Shown in pieces: positions 10,076 through 18,662 of a stretch of 24,457 nucleotides of DNA (within the stretch, counting starts at the first letter, position 1; every line of letters begins with the position of its first letter). Source of the DNA: a virus (lineage: Duplodnaviria > Heunggongvirae > Uroviricota > Caudoviricetes); the IMG/VR virus record IMGVR_UViG_3300035208_005614, positions 64,001 through 88,457 of that record; one strand, written 5' to 3'. The position numbers were made by a program, and so were the translations under genes. The notes beneath the pieces are model-generated. The model was given only the letters and a program-made list of their open reading frames with translations, did no database searches and had not been told where the DNA came from.

Positions 10076-11344
10076 CTAGGATGTAACACCAAGAAGCAAT
10101 GCGTGCTTAGGTGATTGTTCTCTTTGAAGTCCGCACTCAGTGATATATTGATCTACTTCTCCATCTGCATCTGGTGCTTGGATGTTAGTTTGTAGAGATG
10201 TATCTCTGTTGTTCATGAATCTGTAAGCAAAAGCGTCCATATCCATCATAAATGCGTAACCTGCGTAATCCTGTACGAACAATGGGTTGTGTACAATGTT
10301 TACTGTACCGAATGCTGTGACCCATGTTGAAATCTTCATACCATAAGTTGTCTCAACTGGTTTACATAGGATTTGTCCTCTTGCAATTTCGTTGATAGCT
10401 TGTAGCACGATACCTCCAGCGAAGATCAATTTTGTATCATTACCGTAAGTAAAACCTTCTCTCAAGAATGTGTTCATATCTGGAGCTGTCAATGGACCGC
10501 CTTGATTTTGAACATATGAATTACCTGCGCTAATAAACTCATGAACTCCTCCAGTTGATCTCCTTGGATGACCGTAAACTCCTGTGTCTGCGAACTTTTG
10601 ACCCCACCAGAATGCTCTTTCAATGTCCAAAGCGTGTTCTGTACCTTTCTTTGCTCTCTGATAAGGAAGATCTTTACCTCCGTAAAGGTTAGCTTCTTTC
10701 TCTGTATTTGAGAGTGCAATTGTGGTTTTGAAAATCTGTGTGTAGTTTGTCTGAGGTGCAGTTTGGGTTGAGTTAACATTTCTTGCGCCTGAGTTTTCCT
10801 CGTTGACGTTACCAATGATAAACAATCCATCTCCATCTTTAATAACAGCTGCAGCTGTTGAACCGAAGCCTCTAGCTGCTGCTACTATGATGTTTGTTGC
10901 GACCGTAACAGCTCCAACAGTAAAACATTCACCAGTTCTTGCATTCTTTACAACGTCTCCGAGTGTAAATATTGCAGCTGAACTTGATCCTGCTCCTGTA
11001 ACTGTAACGTTCTGGTTTGCAGCTGCAGTTACGTCAGCACCTTGTGCTCTTGCGTATCTACCTCCGTAAACATCTTCAAACCATTTGAACTCAGGGTTAC
11101 CTGTAGCTCTCTTCATCATACCTGATCCTTTCCATGCTTTTCCATCCCATACTTTTCCTACGTTTGTAAGAAGAGTTACTAGAGGGTGCTTGTTTGGTTC
11201 AAGTAAGAATATTTTGTCAACCGCATCAACGATAAGTCTTTGTTCAGTATTAGCAGTTGTGGTTGTTCTTTGGTAACCAGTTGCTGCTGTATTGATAACT
11301 TGACCTGTTTGGTGAGTTGGCTCTGTGTAATAAGGATATGCCAT
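10076..11344 (-). CDS. Major capsid protein (HK97 fold, SU10-MCP/DUF5309-like)
   Basis: FKWFED, NYTQIFKTTIALSNT, EHALDIERAFWWG, GEVDQYITECGL; follows the scaffold gene. Confidence 0.88.
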   Translation of the reverse strand: MAYPYYTEPTHQTGQVINTAATGYQRTTTTANTEQRLIVDAVDKIFLLEPNKHPLVTLLTNVGKVWDGKAWKGSGMMKRATGNPEFKWFEDVYGGRYARAQGADVTAAANQNVTVTGAGSSSAAIFTLGDVVKNARTGECFTVGAVTVATNIIVAAARGFGSTAAAVIKDGDGLFIIGNVNEENSGARNVNSTQTAPQTNYTQIFKTTIALSNTEKEANLYGGKDLPYQRAKKGTEHALDIERAFWWGQKFADTGVYGHPRRSTGGVHEFISAGNSYVQNQGGPLTAPDMNTFLREGFTYGNDTKLIFAGGIVLQAINEIARGQILCKPVETTYGMKISTWVTAFGTVNIVHNPLFVQDYAGYAFMMDMDAFAYRFMNNRDTSLQTNIQAPDADGEVDQYITECGLQREQSPKHALLLGVTS

Positions 11345-11434: not shown

Positions 11435-12238
11435 TTAGAAGATATTAGGATTAGATTTCGATGCTATGAGTGTATCAACAACGTTTTCATCGCCTCTAAG
11501 ATGAGTGACACTTCCTGTTGGACTTCCGCCCATATTAAGTGCTCCGTTCTTTTCAGCTTCCGCTTTGTCAATATCTGCTTGCTTTTTAGCTTCCCTTTCA
11601 GAAAGTTCTCCTTTGACTGCATAATATGCGACTGCAATGTCGGTCACATCATGTTCATCAAGCCATTTATCGATTTCTGACGCGTACGTCGAGAAATCTG
11701 GTGTTCTGGCAATGAAGTCATTAACACTTGATTCAAAAGCATTTAGTTCATCACGTTCCTTAAATTTTGCTTCAAGTTCGCTTTTGATCTCTTTTGCTTT
11801 ATCTTCAACGAGTTTACTGACATCCTCTGGTGAAGCATTTTCATAAGCTTTCTTACCTAACTCCTTCTTAACTTCTTCGTTAGCCTTACTAACGATTTGT
11901 GCATCTCCGATTGTAACCTTACCTTCCATTGCGGCCTTAGCCAAATCTCCAGTAACTTTACCATCTATGATGGCTTGCACGATTTCAGGACTCTTATCTA
12001 GTTTATCCAGTAATGGAGCGATGTCAGAAAAGAATTTTCTGAACTCACCTAACTCCTGTCCTTGTCGTCCCGCAAGACTTTCTAACTCTGCGTGTTGCTT
12101 AGGATCTATCTTAACTTCCTCTGCTACTACTTGTGTCTGCCCACCTCCAACATTATTTGGATTTGGAACACTACCTGCTATAGGGCTACCCGCGGTTGCG
12201 GACCCATCAAATGCGTTGTTTGCCATATTTTTATTCAT
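11435..12238 (-). CDS. Capsid scaffolding protein
   Basis: Acidic and helical, HAELESLAGRQGQELGEFRK, directly upstream of the capsid gene; the start may be the second ATG at 12226. Confidence 0.75.
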   Translation of the reverse strand: MNKNMANNAFDGSATAGSPIAGSVPNPNNVGGGQTQVVAEEVKIDPKQHAELESLAGRQGQELGEFRKFFSDIAPLLDKLDKSPEIVQAIIDGKVTGDLAKAAMEGKVTIGDAQIVSKANEEVKKELGKKAYENASPEDVSKLVEDKAKEIKSELEAKFKERDELNAFESSVNDFIARTPDFSTYASEIDKWLDEHDVTDIAVAYYAVKGELSEREAKKQADIDKAEAEKNGALNMGGSPTGSVTHLRGDENVVDTLIASKSNPNIF

Positions 12239-12278: not shown

Positions 12279-12437
12279 CTATTTCTTTTTATCAAATTTC
12301 TTTGATGAAAGTTTTTTTGCGATATCTAACAAGTTTATCCCTTCCTTTATTTGAGGCTCCTTCTTAAGCTTAAGAAGAGCTTCAGAAATGGATGGACTTA
12401 TTAAATTCTCGGGCGTTTTTTCCATAGTTTTATTCAT
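12279..12437 (-). CDS. Small Lys-rich protein, 52 aa (not in ORF track)
   Basis: Hand translation MNKTMEKTPENLISPSISEALLKLKKEPQIKEGINLLDIAKKLSSKKFDKKK; fills the gap, with TATAAT 9 nt upstream. Confidence 0.65.
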   Translation of the reverse strand: MNKTMEKTPENLISPSISEALLKLKKEPQIKEGINLLDIAKKLSSKKFDKKK

Positions 12438-12452
12438 AATAATAATATTATA

Positions 12453-12686
12453 CTACCTATTAACGAAATTGCCAATAGCTGTCGAAACTTTACCCCCACT
12501 TGCTTCTCCAGTACTCTCTGTACCTTCAGCTACATCAACTGCCTTTTTCTTCTTTTTAAGTTTATTGACAACTGATTTAGTTTCTTCAGTACTTCTATCT
12601 GGACCTATACTGGAATAAGGTTTCTTGCCTGTAATGTCTGATTGATCAAACATTTCTGACTTACCTTTATCTTCTTGATTTGCCAT
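12453..12686 (-). CDS. Small hypothetical protein with a poly-Lys tract (77 aa)
   Basis: ORF track; TAACATG junction with the upstream gene. Confidence 0.65.
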   Translation of the reverse strand: MANQEDKGKSEMFDQSDITGKKPYSSIGPDRSTEETKSVVNKLKKKKKAVDVAEGTESTGEASGGKVSTAIGNFVNR

Positions 12687-12687
12687 G

Positions 12688-12996
12688 TTATTTGTTTAAG
12701 TGTTTTTTAATAATGACCTTTAATTCTCCTCGTTTCTTACCTCTTTTTTCCATCTTCTCAAGATCTGTATAATAACTTGGTACTTCGTTTATATGTATCA
12801 ATGCTATTTTACCTGTCTTTACTGGATCATCATCAGTAACGTTTGTATTTAAACCTTTCTTTCTTGCTTCTTCTTTACCGTGTTCTAATTCAACTTTTAA
12901 TCCTTTTCTAAATTGTTCAAGTCCTTTACTACTCAACCTTGATCCTAGTTTATCTATGATATTTTTTGCTTCTGTTGTAGAAAAGTTCTTTTTCAT
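12688..12996 (-). CDS. Small protein resembling the DUF5661 family
   Basis: GLKVELEH...NVTDDDP..TGKIALIHINEVPSYYTDLEKME matches the recalled family pattern. Confidence 0.6.
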   Translation of the reverse strand: MKKNFSTTEAKNIIDKLGSRLSSKGLEQFRKGLKVELEHGKEEARKKGLNTNVTDDDPVKTGKIALIHINEVPSYYTDLEKMEKRGKKRGELKVIIKKHLNK

Positions 12997-13000
12997 GTTC

Positions 13001-13168
13001 TTATTTCTTTAGATTTGGATATTTTTTTGAAATTTCTTTCTCTTCCTCAGCTTCACCTTTTTTAAATGATGGAGATTCTTTTGATTCATGAGCTTTTGAC
13101 TCTTTACCTGAAAAATCTGTTGCTGATTTTATAGCTTTTTTAACTATACTTTTTTTATCTTTTGCCAT
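13001..13168 (-). CDS. Small charged protein, 55 aa (not in ORF track)
   Basis: Hand translation MAKDKKSIVKKAIKSATDFSGKESKAHESKESPSFKKGEAEEEKEISKKYPNLKK. Confidence 0.7.
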   Translation of the reverse strand: MAKDKKSIVKKAIKSATDFSGKESKAHESKESPSFKKGEAEEEKEISKKYPNLKK

Positions 13169-13289
13169 GTTGTTTTTTTAAATATTTTTTAATAATTTTC
13201 TTCTTCTCAATACCGACCTTTAAACGACCTTCCTTTGCTGATTGTGCCGTATCTGTTGGTCCAGAATAATTTGGTTGATTTGTATCCAT
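13155..13289 (-). CDS. Small basic protein, 44 aa (not in ORF track)
   Basis: Hand translation MDTNQPNYSGPTDTAQSAKEGRLKVGIEKKKIIKKYLKKQHGKR; TAATATG junction with the upstream gene. Confidence 0.65.
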   Translation of the reverse strand: MDTNQPNYSGPTDTAQSAKEGRLKVGIEKKKIIKKYLKKQHGKR

Positions 13290-13290
13290 A

Positions 13291-13539
13291 TTAGTAAGCG
13301 GGTAATTTAACTTTCTTAATTGACTTTTTAATTATTGAAATCTTTGTTACTTTAGGAATCTTAATTTTTGTCATTTTAGCAAAATTGGGAGTACTTGTAC
13401 TAGCTCCTTTAGGAACTTTTGTTTTTGACAATGAAAAAGATGAATTTTTAGGAAGTTTAATTTTACCCATGAGTTTAGAACTTATTCTTGGTAAGTCTTT
13501 TGACTGAACTTTTATTGATGTTGGGTTTGAAATTGACAT
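13291..13539 (-). CDS. Lys/Ser/Pro-rich low-complexity basic protein (histone-H1-like composition)
   Basis: ORF track, 82 aa with a single acidic residue; TAAAAATG junction. Confidence 0.7.
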   Translation of the reverse strand: MSISNPTSIKVQSKDLPRISSKLMGKIKLPKNSSFSLSKTKVPKGASTSTPNFAKMTKIKIPKVTKISIIKKSIKKVKLPAY

Positions 13540-13541
13540 TT

Positions 13542-13721
13542 TTATGCTTTGTGAAATCTACTCAATGTTTTAGCCAAAATAGCTCTTTTTTTTGTCTTAG
13601 GGTTGTCGCTTTTTGCTGCTGCATTAAGTTTACTTGCTGGAATTTTCTTTCCTGATGGAACACCTAGCATCTTATGTAGACTTCCTGGGTTTTTTATTGC
13701 GTTTTGTATCCAATTTGCCAT
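13542..13721 (-). CDS. Small basic protein, 59 aa (start re-assigned to MANWIQ)
   Basis: WIQNAIKNPGSLHKMLGVPSGKKIPASKL resembles a small protein I recall from environmental phages. The track start is GTG inside the promoter element, and the ATG at 13721 lies 9 nt after TATAAT. Confidence 0.7.
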   Translation of the reverse strand: MANWIQNAIKNPGSLHKMLGVPSGKKIPASKLNAAAKSDNPKTKKRAILAKTLSRFHKA

Positions 13722-13730
13722 ATATCTTTT

Positions 13731-13747
13731 ATTATAACACACTTCTA
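13731..13747 (-). promoter_or_regulatory. Variant of the TAGGACTRTG-N-TAnnnT promoter element
   Basis: TAGAAGTGTG-T-TATAAT, 9 nt before the ATG at 13721. Confidence 0.65.
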
Positions 13748-13753
13748 ATAAAA

Positions 13754-14113
13754 CTACACAATCCCGTACCCTCCTCCATTGTCTTCCTTCTCTTTTTCCT
13801 CCTTATACTTAGGATTCTCTTGCTTCTTTGACTCAAATTTAAGAGAAAGAACAGCATCTTGTAAATCAAGGACTCCTGTTATAACACCTTGATACTGTGA
13901 TATTTTAGAAGGTTCCTTTACAGGATCAATAACAAGGAAAGAATTTTGTATAACCGCTATTCTCTCTTGATTATATTTAAGGATTGCGAACCACATAGGT
14001 GTTCCTTCCAATTCCTTTAACAAATTATTCATCTCAGAGTTAGTCATATCTCTTATCGCATCTCTAACCTCCTTAGTAAAATAATTCTTGATTTCATTAG
14101 TATTTTTATTCAT
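13754..14113 (-). CDS. Helical head-assembly-associated protein (Bbp19-like)
   Basis: LLKELEGTPMWFAILKY...ISQYQGVITGVLDL pattern typical of the small gene between portal and scaffold. Confidence 0.45.
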   Translation of the reverse strand: MNKNTNEIKNYFTKEVRDAIRDMTNSEMNNLLKELEGTPMWFAILKYNQERIAVIQNSFLVIDPVKEPSKISQYQGVITGVLDLQDAVLSLKFESKKQENPKYKEEKEKEDNGGGYGIV

Positions 14114-14135
14114 ATTTTTATATTTAATTTAATAA

Positions 14136-14633
14136 TTATTTATCTGACGCCCAATTCTTGTTCTTTGTAAACTTTCTTTGGGCTTCTTTATAAGCGGCCG
14201 TGCTACTGAATTGGTTTCTTGTAGGCATCTTCAATGTTTCTGGAGCTTCTTTCTGCAATGTTTCTCTAAGTCTTGGTGTTGTTGGACCAGCCTCTGGAGT
14301 TGGTGTAAAAGGAATTACTTTTTTAACTGCTTTTTGTACAGATAATTTTGCTGGAGATTTTCCGAGTTCTTTTGCTTCTTTGGCAGCTCCTGCGACTCCT
14401 CCTAACAAACCTCTAACTCCTGCATTTAAATAAGAACCTGGATCTCTAAAACCTAAATTCTTTTGATCAGCGGCCATCGTTGACTTGAATGTATCTACAG
14501 CGCCTTTGGCTCCTGCACCTACAACTTTACCTGCATTTTTTATTGCTCCTGTTATTCCTGCAGCGGTATTCTTAATACCGTCCATAGGACCACCTTTACC
14601 ACATGCTTTCTTTAATATTTGTTTCTTGTTCAT
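14136..14633 (-). CDS. Basic Gly/Ala-rich protein (165 aa), possible internal virion protein
   Basis: ORF track; N-terminal KKQILKKACGKGG and internal VQKAVKKVIP. Confidence 0.7.
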   Translation of the reverse strand: MNKKQILKKACGKGGPMDGIKNTAAGITGAIKNAGKVVGAGAKGAVDTFKSTMAADQKNLGFRDPGSYLNAGVRGLLGGVAGAAKEAKELGKSPAKLSVQKAVKKVIPFTPTPEAGPTTPRLRETLQKEAPETLKMPTRNQFSSTAAYKEAQRKFTKNKNWASDK

Positions 14634-14637
14634 GCTA

Positions 14638-14865
14638 TTAATTTTTAATTTTCTTATAAGCGAGTGGAATCGACTTTCTAAACCACTCTTGTTGTTGTAT
14701 CGGATTCAATTGAGAAACTGGTTTTGGCATTGCATCTAGTTTACTAAATTTAGTTCCTATCGGTACATTTGTTGCTGGAACTTTTTTAATCTTTAGTTTT
14801 AAATCATCTAATCCAGAGGGAACTTCCTTCTTGACGGCCTTTTTTAATAATGTTTTTTTATCCAT
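14638..14865 (-). CDS. Small basic protein (75 aa)
   Basis: ORF track; KKTLLKKAVKK N-terminus; TAATATG junction. Confidence 0.7.
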   Translation of the reverse strand: MDKKTLLKKAVKKEVPSGLDDLKLKIKKVPATNVPIGTKFSKLDAMPKPVSQLNPIQQQEWFRKSIPLAYKKIKN

Positions 14866-14866
14866 A

Positions 14867-15034
14867 TTATTTTTTTCCTAAAGAATTTGTTTCCGACCTT
14901 GGGATTGCTGAAGTTGTTGGCGGTTCTCCTCTCATCTTAAGCAAATCTATTGGAGCATTTGCTTGTTTGTACGGTGAGTTCGGCATTCCTCCTTTACCCA
15001 TGCATTTCTTAATTATTTTCTTCTTCTTATTCAT
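14867..15034 (-). CDS. Small basic protein, 55 aa (not in ORF track)
   Basis: Hand translation MNKKKKIIKKCMGKGGMPNSPYKQANAPIDLLKMRGEPPTTSAIPRSETNSLGKK; TAATATG junctions at both ends. Confidence 0.72.
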   Translation of the reverse strand: MNKKKKIIKKCMGKGGMPNSPYKQANAPIDLLKMRGEPPTTSAIPRSETNSLGKK

Positions 15035-15035
15035 A

Positions 15036-17195
15036 TTATTTTTTCTTTTTCTGAATGCTTGATGCTTGATTTACCAAAGCACTTTCAGGATTACTATTAA
15101 TACTATGAACGCTTGTGTTTGTATTTACCTTACCAGTTCTATTTGCCCCTCTTGAGTTTGTAGTAGGTAATGGAATTCTTGATGCTGTTGGTGGCATTCC
15201 TCCAGCGTTTAACAAGTTAATTGGAGAAGAAGCCTGTGCCATCGGTGCTGGCGCACTTGCACCTCCTCTTAACATAGCGAGTGCGTTCTGTGCAACGTCT
15301 GATGGAATATTTTTTGTTCCTCCCATTGGAGAAGGTACTTCGGGAACTCCTCCTGCCATTGTTGCCATTGGGTCAGATTCAGGTAATGGTTGTCCATCAG
15401 GACCTGCTGGCACTGGTTGCCCGTCTGGACCTACAGGTTGTCCATCAGGACCCATTGTAGGAGCAGCATCTTCGCTCTTAGCGACTGAATCAATTGACCA
15501 ATTCCAATCTGTAAGTATTTTTTGTGTAAGTTTTTGTGGATCAACGAATGGAAGGTTAATAAGAAGTTGAAATAGATCCATATCTTGTTTCTTTTTAATA
15601 TCTTGTTGTCCAGCAATTGATGGAAGTACTGACGCTTTGTAATCAAACAAACCGCAAAGATCATCTTTTTGTATAATAGGAAACATTTCTTTTCCATCAT
15701 CTCCGATAATTCTAATTGTCATATCTTTAGTAAAGAATTGTCTTTCCATATCCATCCAATATCTCATCAAATCTGAGAATCCATTACCTAAGTGGTTAAC
15801 GAATAATCTAACACGTTCAAGAGTTGATTCTCTAAGGTGTCTAACTTCAGTTGCTGAGTTTGCTCCTCCTCCTGCGCCCATAGAAAAGTCGTCAACACCT
15901 GATGCGTATCTCATATCTGCCTTTAACAAGTCTTCTTCCTTGTAAGCAGAAGCTTTTATGTCGCTAAATTGGACTTCTCTGACTCCATTTGGGTCAACTG
16001 AGTAAATAATACCGAAAGGACGAGTAACAAGTTCCTCTTTATTGATATTTGCAAGTGGATTTACGATCCACATCTTGTGAATTGACAAAGTAGCAGCATC
16101 TAACCTCTGATTTTTGATCATATTCATCATAATTTGAGGATTTTCAAGGATCATTGGAAGACCGTAGCCTTCATATTCACCTGGAACCTTCAAATAAGGG
16201 AAATCTATGTAAGTTGCCTCCTTAAAATCGTAAGGAATTGGTTGCCATCCTCCTTTTAGGATAGGACACCATCCTCCACCTACGTGAACTGAGTAACAAT
16301 CAGCAAAAGGTTGTGTCCATTCGAAAACTTCATACATTTGTAACTCTGGATCACCGAAAGTATTATATTTATCACTACCCCATCCATAAGCAGGGCCGTT
16401 AAATGTGTTTACACCCTTAACTGTGAGGTCTTGATTCTGTTTTACTTGGATTCTTATTGAAGCATAGTCTTGTAAATCACCTCCTGGGTTATTTAAAGCC
16501 AATGCAAGTCTCTCTGGATCTGCACTTGGGTACTTCCTGACGATTTCTGGAGCTGTTAATACAAGTCTTCTAAGCCAATATTGCTTGGATTGCCTTTCTG
16601 TGTTGTGCCAATCGTAGAAAAGAGAGTAGTTATCTACCCATTCTGCACTTGGAGCATCATAAAAAGTCTTTGATTCCTCTTTCCATACATACTTTTTCTT
16701 CAAAAGATCTTGTGTTTTAAGAAATTTTTGTTTTCTAACATCCTTTTTCCAATAAGCCTGAAGATATCCCATCCCGTAAATGAGTGAAGAACGAACTACA
16801 TCCTCTGTGGTCTTGTCCATTTTTGAAATTTCCCATATATAATCACCTAATTGTTGTTGTTTTTCAGCCTTTAATTGGTCATCTGCGGTTCTCCCCTGAA
16901 CACTGAAGTCAGGTCTAGCATCAAGAACACGAGGCATAAGAGTTTCTACTACAGCTTGTACGTAAGGAACGAATATGTTTGATTGCCAAGACTTAATTTG
17001 GAGTTGCCTATCACCGTTATAAGCAATGTATAGTTTATATGATCTATCTAAACGAGGTTTAATAACACGCAAGAAATATTCACGTGAATCCTGCATCTGT
17101 AACATGAATTTAGACTGAAAATTGACCTCCTCTGGCCCATAGTCAGATGGCGTATATGTGTTAAAACGGGTGTATTTATTTAAAATGATTGACAT
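15036..17195 (-). CDS. Portal protein (P22/SU10-like) with a low-complexity C-terminal tail
   Basis: 719 aa directly after TerL; SNIFVPYVQAVVETLMPR, YGMGYLQAYW, MIKNQRLDAATLSIHKMW, YASGVDDFSMG..NSATEV. Confidence 0.88.
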   Translation of the reverse strand: MSIILNKYTRFNTYTPSDYGPEEVNFQSKFMLQMQDSREYFLRVIKPRLDRSYKLYIAYNGDRQLQIKSWQSNIFVPYVQAVVETLMPRVLDARPDFSVQGRTADDQLKAEKQQQLGDYIWEISKMDKTTEDVVRSSLIYGMGYLQAYWKKDVRKQKFLKTQDLLKKKYVWKEESKTFYDAPSAEWVDNYSLFYDWHNTERQSKQYWLRRLVLTAPEIVRKYPSADPERLALALNNPGGDLQDYASIRIQVKQNQDLTVKGVNTFNGPAYGWGSDKYNTFGDPELQMYEVFEWTQPFADCYSVHVGGGWCPILKGGWQPIPYDFKEATYIDFPYLKVPGEYEGYGLPMILENPQIMMNMIKNQRLDAATLSIHKMWIVNPLANINKEELVTRPFGIIYSVDPNGVREVQFSDIKASAYKEEDLLKADMRYASGVDDFSMGAGGGANSATEVRHLRESTLERVRLFVNHLGNGFSDLMRYWMDMERQFFTKDMTIRIIGDDGKEMFPIIQKDDLCGLFDYKASVLPSIAGQQDIKKKQDMDLFQLLINLPFVDPQKLTQKILTDWNWSIDSVAKSEDAAPTMGPDGQPVGPDGQPVPAGPDGQPLPESDPMATMAGGVPEVPSPMGGTKNIPSDVAQNALAMLRGGASAPAPMAQASSPINLLNAGGMPPTASRIPLPTTNSRGANRTGKVNTNTSVHSINSNPESALVNQASSIQKKKK
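15388..15452 (-). repeat. Three GPDGQP repeats in the portal tail
   Basis: ggttgtccatcaggacc at 15388-15404 and 15436-15452; ggttgcccgtctggacc at 15415-15431. Confidence 0.85.
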
Positions 17196-17204
17196 ATTAT
17201 TGTT

Positions 17205-17221
17205 ATAATATCATAGTCCTA
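17205..17221 (-). promoter_or_regulatory. TAGGACTRTG-N-TAnnnT promoter element
   Basis: TAGGACTATG-A-TATTAT, 9 nt before the portal ATG at 17195. Confidence 0.8.
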
Positions 17222-17222
17222 C

Positions 17223-18662
17223 TTAATAACCAACGGAGGGCAAATGATTAGCGTAATTAATCTGATCCATCTTCTTATCAGAGATGACTTTAAAACCTTG
17301 TAAAGCAATCGCAGTGGCAAAGATACAGTCATCGTGATAAGAATCCATAGCCACCATATTGTTAGCATCATTAAAAATAAACACCGTCATTTCATCAACT
17401 GTTTCCTTACTATGTAACGTAATATTGTCCTCACGCGTCATCTGTTCGAATTCATCGATTAAAATTGGTCTTGTTAATTTTGTTGTTTTCCAACCTAACT
17501 TATCAGACCATGGGTTACCGATTGTGTCAAAACGTGCAGGTCTAAAATATAAAGATGGGTATAACAATTGTTTAAGAATATTAAGAACAACGTTACCGTG
17601 AGCTTCAGCTTCAACAACCATCAATGCATTATTATATTTTCTTCCCCACTTATCCAAAACTTTTGCAAATTTATCTGGTGCTATATGACCTCTCCACATA
17701 GCAACTTCTTCTCCAGTCATTCTGTCTAAAATAGTTGCAACTGCATAGTCTCCTCCTGATACACCTTCAGAACAGTCTGCTCCTAATACATAAAAATGTC
17801 CTTTCTCTGCAGGTCTGTAAATTCTAAAACCTTCTTCTTCTCTGACCATATGTTCTGATCCATCTTCCATCTTAACTTTATCTCCTACCTTCCAAACTCT
17901 ACTTCTTTGTAATGCAATTGTTTCTTGTGTAAAAACAGATCTACCTGAAATAAGAAATTCCAAAGCATAGTTGTTGTTGAACTGACGAGGGTTATTCATT
18001 CTTCTTCTAATCGTTTCAATTTCTTGCTCTGTATAATTCCACCACCAACCATATTCTTTTTTAATATAATCGTTTTCAGAAACCCACATTCTATGGAAGT
18101 AATCTCCCACAGCTCCAGGTGATGACTCAATAACAATCTTTCCATTAACTGGAACAGAAGCTTCAAGAGTAACAAGTTTTTCTTCTGCTTTATCCCAGAA
18201 AGGCACCTCAGTTAAAAGTGCATAATTGATTGTGTATCCTCTTCCTACGTTTTCTGTAGAAGGAAGAACAAGAATTTTTGAGTCTGCCTTAGGGAATGAA
18301 ATTTCAAACTTAGAGTTGTAATGGATCGTAGGTCTAATTGCATCAGGAGTTGTTCTATAAAATGTTTTAATTTTATCTAGAAGTTCAGCAGTAAGGTCGT
18401 TGTTGTATCCAACAATTGCTGTTGTAACTCCAGGGGTTGTAATTGTTTTATGATAAAAGAATCCAGTAACCGCAGTACTAAAACCAATCTGTCTAGCCTT
18501 CATAATAATAATACGATTGTTTCTTTGTATAACATTAAAAATATCCAACTGCGCAGGTTTAAGAATAAAGGGCTCTAACCCCTTACCTTCTTTTCCTTTA
18601 ATCTTACAAAAATTTTCTAAGTAAAATCTTGGATCTGCTAATTTTTCAACGGGGTTACTCAT
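17223..18662 (-). CDS. terL: Terminase large subunit
   Basis: IIIMKARQIGFST (Walker A), YALLTE (Walker B), IVIESSPG (coupling motif), YVLGADCSEG and HDDCIFATAIA (RNase H-like nuclease). Confidence 0.93.
   Translation of the reverse strand: MSNPVEKLADPRFYLENFCKIKGKEGKGLEPFILKPAQLDIFNVIQRNNRIIIMKARQIGFSTAVTGFFYHKTITTPGVTTAIVGYNNDLTAELLDKIKTFYRTTPDAIRPTIHYNSKFEISFPKADSKILVLPSTENVGRGYTINYALLTEVPFWDKAEEKLVTLEASVPVNGKIVIESSPGAVGDYFHRMWVSENDYIKKEYGWWWNYTEQEIETIRRRMNNPRQFNNNYALEFLISGRSVFTQETIALQRSRVWKVGDKVKMEDGSEHMVREEEGFRIYRPAEKGHFYVLGADCSEGVSGGDYAVATILDRMTGEEVAMWRGHIAPDKFAKVLDKWGRKYNNALMVVEAEAHGNVVLNILKQLLYPSLYFRPARFDTIGNPWSDKLGWKTTKLTRPILIDEFEQMTREDNITLHSKETVDEMTVFIFNDANNMVAMDSYHDDCIFATAIALQGFKVISDKKMDQINYANHLPSVGY

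Follow-up and report, generated by a model that had tools for sequence, protein, structure and literature searches.

A lysine-rich terminal peptide shared by small basic proteins encoded between portal and scaffold in an uncultured tailed phage

Between the portal gene and the gene for a scaffold-like protein of an uncultured tailed phage lies an array of 11 small genes, seven of which encode a protein carrying the same short lysine-rich peptide close to one of its ends. The array occupies positions 12,279 to 15,034 of a 24,457-nucleotide stretch of DNA (the window; positions 64,001 to 88,457 of IMG/VR virus record IMGVR_UViG_3300035208_005614), which is part of a 101,237-bp record rated complete. 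As a portable module, the peptide (the tag) has been transferred to unrelated protein bodies. The array may be a hypervariable locus of head-internal proteins bearing an uncleaved docking tag, functionally like the capsid-targeting sequence (CTS) of T4 or the RIIK hook of 80alpha and SaPI1 and a member of neither family; this reading is favoured tentatively, at somewhat less than even probability.

All 11 open reading frames (ORFs) described in the original prediction were present on the minus strand, and the seven motif copies that it had listed were recovered, each matching [ILV][ILV]KKx[ILVMC]x[KS] within 15 residues of a protein end (Table 1). Four copies are N-terminal, starting at residues 6-8 of the 55-, 75-, 165- and second 55-amino-acid (aa) proteins (tags span residues 6-15); the other three stand at the C-terminus of the 82-, 44- and 102-aa proteins. 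The consensus is roughly KK-x-[ILV][ILV]-K-K-x-[ILVMC]-x-K, located 3-15 residues from either end, and GKGGP often trails the N-terminal tags. Two further sites had been proposed, an internal echo (VQKAVKK) and a partial copy in the scaffold (EVKKELGK), and these were located at residue 99 of the 165-aa protein and residue 122 of the scaffold-like protein, respectively. Across the whole genome (141 ORFs, 31,200 aa) the strict motif was matched seven times, and all seven matches fall in the array. The motif is shared at the level of the peptide and is not a DNA repeat, because synonymous codon differences separate the seven copies.

The array proteins are strongly basic, as had been claimed, with 169 K + 25 R vs 90 D+E in 892 residues and a net charge of +6 to +19 in 9 of the 11. 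The concern that Lys-richness by itself inflates such matches was addressed with composition-preserving shuffles. Shuffling of whole proteins gave an expectation of 0.07 motif proteins vs 7 observed (0/20,000 shuffles reached it). Shuffling within blocks of 10-20 residues, which retains local Lys/Ile richness and keeps terminal Lys patches in place, gave an expectation of 0.10-0.15 and a maximum of 4 (again 0/20,000).

Transfer of the tag was followed in the 102-aa protein, which matches Pfam family DUF5661 (PF18905) with 60.7 bits vs a cut-off of 27 (E=1.7e-16). The domain covers residues 10-85 and the tag lies beyond it. The 35 closest of the top 120 DUF5661 homologues (mostly ~101 aa and of array type) end in ...LKAIIKKHLKK-type tails, whereas the other 84, which are more distant and mostly of the 86-92 aa usual for the family, stop after the domain without a Lys-rich tail. 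A tailed homologue that was checked has the context of the window (portal, small genes, scaffold, SU10_MCP), and one tail-less homologue that was checked lies on an archaeal chromosome among genes for ribosomal protein L15e, DNA ligase, TBP and MCM. No paper mentioning DUF5661 was found in the open-access library searched.

Gene fission and fusion were also observed. A 195-aa gene of related locus L005 corresponds to the 165-aa and 75-aa genes of the window, the 75-aa body matching its C-terminal part. Both fission products are tagged, the separate 75-aa gene having a leader of its own. At L030 and L080 a protein of the 44-aa type is fused via its tag and GKGGPG to a Lys-rich body, and an identical ...KQHGK extension past the tag occurs in two different families. 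The module part of the earlier cargo-tag idea, in which a terminal peptide is portable across otherwise different proteins, was thus borne out: the peptide is conserved in orthologues, was added to DUF5661 and is present on both fission products. The accompanying claim that the proteins are essentially unrelated outside the motif does not hold for all of them. It failed for the 55-aa (14867-15034) and 165-aa proteins, which share a 16-residue leader, MNKK.I[IL]KK[AC].GKGG, and for two proteins that copy segments of the portal or capsid protein.

A portal search of IMG/VR returned 80 loci with 55-84% portal identity, of which 48 had both portal and scaffold (49 counting the window). The portal-to-scaffold gap in these relatives measures 1.0-3.4 kb and holds 3-11 ORFs. 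After BLAST clustering only the 119-aa family was universal (49/49), followed by the 52-aa (39) and 44-aa (30) families; the others come and go. Orthologues of all 11 window ORFs were found in 5-49 related contigs, with saturated synonymous divergence (dS) and ratios of nonsynonymous to synonymous divergence (dN/dS) of 0.08-0.53, and the ORFs are therefore regarded as real genes under purifying selection. Strict-motif density in the 48 related contigs was 0.89 per 1000 aa within arrays vs 0.02 outside (~36-fold), and 15 of 19 copies lay within 16 residues of an end. Three matches fell outside the arrays, two being a VKKxLGK site of the scaffold and one another N-terminal leader. The expectation that the motif would be conserved and its flanks would not was satisfied in the 82-, 55- and 165-aa families (tag identity 0.61-0.90 vs 0.33-0.42). 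Values reached 0.90 vs 0.33 for the rest of the protein in the 165-aa family (5 orthologues) and 0.69 vs 0.38 in the 82-aa family, with a class similarity of 1.00. In families with a body that is a conserved domain or peptide in its own right, tag and body are conserved to a similar degree.

Two tagged proteins resemble flexible arms of the structural proteins. The 55-aa protein adjoining the portal gene was aligned to portal aa 640-683 (15147..15278, minus strand; ...AMLRGG...SPINLL..G.PPT..IP..TNSRG) with 48% identity by BLASTP (E=3e-8) and a probability of 97% by hhalign (E=7.7e-11). Its orthologues were found in L001, L005 and L011, with a dN/dS of 0.24. The 44-aa protein was aligned to aa 20-42 of the major capsid protein (MCP; 11219-11287), ..RTTAxSxxEGRLxVD, with an hhalign probability of 85% (E=6.5e-6) against the MCP profile, and such pairs were also seen genome by genome. 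It is present in 30/49 loci with a dN/dS of 0.13-0.25 and matches no PHROG. These alignments make the 55-aa protein a tag plus a duplicated portal C-terminal tail; in the 44-aa protein a duplicated capsid N-arm comes first and the tag second. The arm-copy motifs were found nowhere else in the genome.

Other candidate copies were rejected. The 52-aa protein as a copy of the scaffold C-terminus received no hhalign support, and none of the remaining families was found to copy a portal, capsid or scaffold segment. Own-genome co-variation of the 44-aa protein and the capsid arm was likewise not supported (mean identity 8.0 own vs 8.1 cross-genome, P=0.82 by permutation), and no clade-specific co-variation was seen either.

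The scaffold-like protein has no family match and is acidic (49 D+E vs 33 K+R). Its internal VKKxLGKK (aa 122-129; 11852-11875) is conserved clade-wide, matches part of the tag and satisfies the strict motif in two relatives, L046 and L047. The scaffold C-terminus reads ..SNPNIF and is not a tag. No match to a Peptidase_S78 or ClpP head protease was obtained in the complete 101-kb genome, a divergent protease being possible, and a search for a T4/S77-type protease gave no match but also missed its positive controls. No L/I-x-E cleavage site was present past the four N-terminal tags, the residues there being GKGG(P/M), KEVPS or ATDF. The tag is probably uncleaved, because neither an S78/ClpP protease nor a cleavage-type site past the tags was detectable.

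On the favoured reading the array would be a locus for 'internal proteins' within the head-assembly module, hypervariable and probably co-transcribed with the portal, scaffold and capsid genes. Its products, small, very basic and, from their low-complexity composition, probably largely disordered, would be built into the procapsid and would then stay in the head with the DNA. By analogy the tag would most likely dock its bearer on a procapsid component, either the acidic scaffold (in other phages the receptor is usually the scaffold) or the capsid protein, at its inner face or around its N-arm. The tag would probably remain in place, unlike that of T4, and the two arm-copy proteins would probably occupy the binding sites of their parent arms. 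Procapsid loading with the tag as address is inferred from the position between portal and scaffold, the transcriptional layout and the T4 and 80alpha precedents. As to that layout, no terminator-like site was found within the array, the only two in the scanned stretch both lying inside the portal gene. A TAGGACT copy is located at 17215-17221, 20 nt upstream of the portal start; it is one of six in the window, none of them inside the array, and the window count is not above chance (9/100 shuffles).

Several results weigh against this reading. A test that allowed for the post-hoc choice of pattern (best gapped pattern in a 6-class reduced alphabet) was weaker than the shuffles: at 6 positions it returned 6 proteins vs a mean of 3.9 (1/300), and at 5 defined positions it was not significant (31/300). 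The tag had been proposed to form an amphipathic helix. This was not supported, since the helical hydrophobic moment of the 12-residue tags was no higher than that of shuffles, and a helix is therefore an assumption. In the 44-aa family, the most widespread of the tagged ones, the tail is variable (identity 0.32) and in some relatives becomes a plain Arg/Lys run, which fits plain electrostatics as well as specific docking. Among relatives with portals below ~65% identity, strict-motif matches are rare. The tag also looks like a payload in the two arm-copy proteins, because the arm copies already provide a candidate address.

A broader proposal, 'assembly-arm mimicry', is considered possible but rather doubtful. 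The array would here hold free-standing, fast-evolving copies of the linear motifs that link the portal tail, the capsid N-arm and possibly the scaffold (VKKxLGK). These would be used as interchangeable, uncleaved addresses placing changeable small basic proteins, DUF5661 and other captured cellular domains among them, at defined positions within a protease-less capsid. The new elements are the Lys-rich tag at either end, the portal-tail copy and the protease-less SU10-type setting. The selection of head-internal proteins by tailed phages that lack a head protease is poorly understood, and well-described address tags are few, the T4 CTS being an example. The tail of the HK97 protease is another. 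If the tag acts as proposed, HK97-fold capsids could be loaded by way of a new and simple handle, an uncleaved peptide of ~8-12 residues functional at the N- or the C-terminus. The arm copies suggest that such tags could originate by duplication of the flexible arms of structural proteins.

The rival to the favoured docking reading that survives best, possible but on balance unlikely, is that the array encodes DNA-condensing or charge-neutralising proteins, the Lys-rich ends being the strongest DNA-binding patches and targeting being left to other parts such as the arm copies. The charge excess given above and the decay of the 44-aa tail to Arg/Lys runs agree with it, as do an SPxK/SPKK site ahead of the internal echo in the 165-aa family and the weak resemblance of the 59-aa protein to the Fusellovirus VP2 capsid-protein family (E=0.001, under the Pfam cut-off). 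VP2 is a DNA-binding protein. Nonspecific contact with DNA, however, needs neither fixed Ile/Leu/Val positions nor a terminal site, and these are the best-conserved features. With bodies that are basic in any case, nothing would require precisely such a peptide on a DUF5661 domain, and proteins cannot pass the portal with the DNA, so that a loading step would still be required. Condensers of the H1/protamine SPKK type consist for the most part of tandem S/TPKK or Arg-rich repeats, whereas only the single SPxK site of the 165-aa family was seen here and no repeat arrays were apparent by eye (no repeat finder was run).

It is improbable that the proteins are instead assembly regulators or decoys that leave with the scaffold, the arm copies and the scaffold-like VKKxLGK competing for sites and so timing nucleation or scaffold release. 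The capsid N-arm and portal-tail copies, together with the strict-motif matches of the conserved scaffold site in two relatives, would suit such a role, and competition through a shared terminal peptide has a precedent in CpmB vs the 80alpha scaffold (PMC5644958). A locus that gains and loses genes over a range of 3-11 would nevertheless be unexpected for core assembly control. The only near-universal genes are those for the 119-aa and 52-aa proteins, both of which are untagged, and the 44-aa protein did not co-vary with the capsid arm of its own genome.

A membrane-binding role, in which the tags would be amphipathic ends of ejected proteins (MinD/FtsA-like helices) that aid a channel or anchor to the host membrane, is very improbable. 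The peptide is cationic, hydrophobic and terminal, and the NSW[VI]K[KR]-type leaders of distant relatives resemble the FtsA tail. Short-tailed relatives such as SU10 do eject head proteins (PMC9509320). Set against this, the tag offers just 3-4 modest hydrophobic residues per two turns, with one position often Ala, Cys or Ser, its hydrophobic moment does not exceed that of shuffles, and no transmembrane or larger hydrophobic segment was seen by eye in the array sequences (no formal scan was made). The least credible alternative, that the motif has no function of its own and is a by-product of Lys/Ile composition, of A-rich codon preference near gene starts and ends or of tandem duplication, could draw on the AT-rich genome (~35% GC), the many genes here that start MNK/MKK, the 55-, 75- and 165-aa genes being tandem paralogues and the non-significant 5-position test, but it is largely refuted by the block shuffles, the restriction of genome matches to the array, replication in relatives, purifying selection on the motif with synonymous variation and its addition to a foreign domain.

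Table 1. Features of the head module in the window, in gene order
Feature	Position	Strand	Details
Large terminase	17223-18662	-	Precedes portal in gene order
Portal, 719 aa	15036-17195	-	Pfam P22_portal 5.9e-20, SU10_portal 9.5e-20; PHROG portal families; directly upstream of array
55-aa protein	14867-15034	-	N-terminal tag IIKKCMGK (14993-15016), GKGG, portal-tail copy (14876-15004)
75-aa protein	14638-14865	-	N-terminal tag LLKKAVKK (14827-14850); dN/dS 0.20-0.33
165-aa Gly/Ala/Lys-rich protein	14136-14633	-	N-terminal tag ILKKACGK (14595-14618), then GKGGP; echo VQKAVKK (14319-14339) after SPxK site
119-aa helical protein	13754-14113	-	Untagged, non-basic; sole array gene in all 49 loci
59/66-aa basic protein	13542-13742	-	No strict tag; phrog_15706 7.5e-6; found at 9 loci
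82-aa Lys/Ser/Pro-rich protein	13291-13539	-	C-terminal tag IIKKSIKK (13312-13335)
44-aa protein	13155-13289	-	Capsid N-arm copy (aa 6-28; 13206-13274), then C-terminal tag IIKKYLKK (13173-13196)
55-aa protein (second)	13001-13168	-	N-terminal tag IVKKAIKS (13124-13147); conserved KKYxNLKK end
102-aa DUF5661 protein	12688-12996	-	Appended C-terminal tag IIKKHLNK (12691-12714)
77-aa protein	12453-12686	-	Untagged; mid-protein KKKKK run; 10 loci
52-aa protein (..EGVDLLDIAKKLSxKKF)	12279-12437	-	Usually last gene before scaffold; 39/49 loci; dN/dS 0.08-0.29
Scaffold-like acidic protein, 267 aa	11435-12238	-	Assigned from position, composition, conservation
Major capsid protein, 422 aa	10076-11344	-	Pfam SU10_MCP 3.9e-52; PDB 9in6 1.8e-31 from aa 74 onward

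The gene order on the minus strand is large terminase, portal, the 11 small ORFs, scaffold-like protein and MCP. From its profile matches the head module is of the SU10-type short-tailed lineage and is not T4-like; in the test of this assignment PDB 7z45 was matched at 5e-6. DNA-level matches to cultured phages were not found, and identity of the capsid protein to the MCPs of Roseobacter phage CRP-810 and Caulobacter phage Kuura does not exceed 29%. These two nearest cultured phages have one small gene between portal and scaffold, in agreement with the earlier statement that few genes usually lie there. Homology of that gene to the 119-aa protein was unsupported (E=0.53 for Kuura and 0.14 for CRP-810). 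AlphaFold2 (AF2) modelled the capsid protein poorly: the predicted local distance difference test (pLDDT) score was 50, with residues 1-95 below 50, and the N-arm could not be placed structurally.

Pfam and PHROGs returned nothing for 8 of the 11 array proteins. The AF2 model of the 119-aa protein, a conserved protein of the head module, is confident (pLDDT 88.8) and all helical; no fold match was found in PDB or BFVD, and Pfam, PHROG and the named Atlas clusters gave none. For the ORF at 13542-13742 the listed GTG start is probably wrong and the true start is probably the ATG at 13721 (59 aa), which is preferred because orthologues begin MANWI.

The portal ends in a long low-complexity C-terminal tail (aa 565-719; 15036-15500) with four short motifs, ALAMLRGG, SPINLL..PPTA, TNPRGxNRxGKVNTN and NSNPESxLxNRAxNIQ, which over 60 related portals retain. 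They are candidate sites of interaction within the head, and mapping them would be worthwhile. The genome's sole further GKGGP lies at aa 2171 of a 2390-aa giant putative ejected protein (genome 31653-38825, beyond the window). Relatives also have GxGGPG[FY] in their portal tails and array proteins, and the element may be a shared linker or motif or a coincidence. The portal ORFs of L063, L064, L068 and L080 are 1029-1060 aa, ~320 residues longer than usual with the frame open, and an inserted domain or intein is possible in them.

Other genes were seen in the arrays of relatives. A 129-aa DUF5856 protein, not found in the window, is encoded at L006:9146-9535, L019:9849-10235, L020:7042-7431 and L022:7732-8121, the two that were scanned scoring 3.5e-10 (L006) and 1.3e-9 (L020) in Pfam. 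It had been considered as Dps-like, and Pfam gave DUF5856 instead. ORFs of ~175-180 aa with Cys/His motifs, HNH-homing-endonuclease-like by eye, lie inside or at the edge of arrays at L005:10735-11259, L049:6534-7067 and L078:2912-3457. The capsid match extends over ~2-2.2 kb vs 1.27 kb at L001:11778-13962, L041-L043 (10206-12381 or 7172-9347), L029, L033, L047, L059 and L061, and in L001 and L041-L043 the first capsid ORF breaks just past ..KIFLLEP. This suggests insertion of an intron or homing element at the same site in the capsid gene of several relatives.

The favoured docking reading was compared with three described systems. The internal proteins of T4 are diverse and share only a targeting sequence, which loads them onto the scaffolding core (PMC3012670). 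The variation of the array among relatives, with 3-11 genes, resembles this diversity, and the array has in common with the CTS of IPI-III and Alt a short shared terminal peptide, diverse basic proteins and a highly variable locus. The CTS, however, sits solely at the N-terminus, has no Lys-rich composition and is cut away by the prohead protease. In the array no L/I-x-E site follows the N-terminal tags and no S78/ClpP protease was found, and on these two points membership of the T4 family fails; as to position, four tags are N-terminal and three C-terminal.

A C-terminal helix and RIIK hook common to the 80alpha scaffold and SaPI1 CpmB bind the capsid N-arm and cleft (PMC5644958), and the SPP1 scaffold binds the N-terminal helix of its capsid protein (PMC6813328). 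The capsid N-arm, the segment copied in the 44-aa protein, is thus the scaffold-contacting segment in both SPP1 and 80alpha (PMC6813328, PMC5644958). Like the tag, the 80alpha/CpmB hook is a terminal peptide (~16 residues) of Lys/Arg-flanked hydrophobics, RIIK vs K-I-I-K-K. It differs in the order of its elements and shows no sequence homology. An IIKK core is present in the array, C-terminal in 3 of the 7 copies. The scaffold of this phage ends in ..SNPNIF, and CpmB and the 80alpha scaffold are assembly factors and not cargo.

The cargo-loading peptides of encapsulins have a Gly/Ser/Leu-type consensus. Encapsulins are cellular compartments without portal, scaffold or DNA, whereas this phage has portal, terminase and scaffold, and there is no homology between the two. 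In encapsulins, short terminal peptides address unrelated cargo into an HK97-fold shell (PMC8346489). The array presents the same arrangement, with a conserved short terminal peptide on unrelated proteins and the gene for an HK97-fold shell adjacent.

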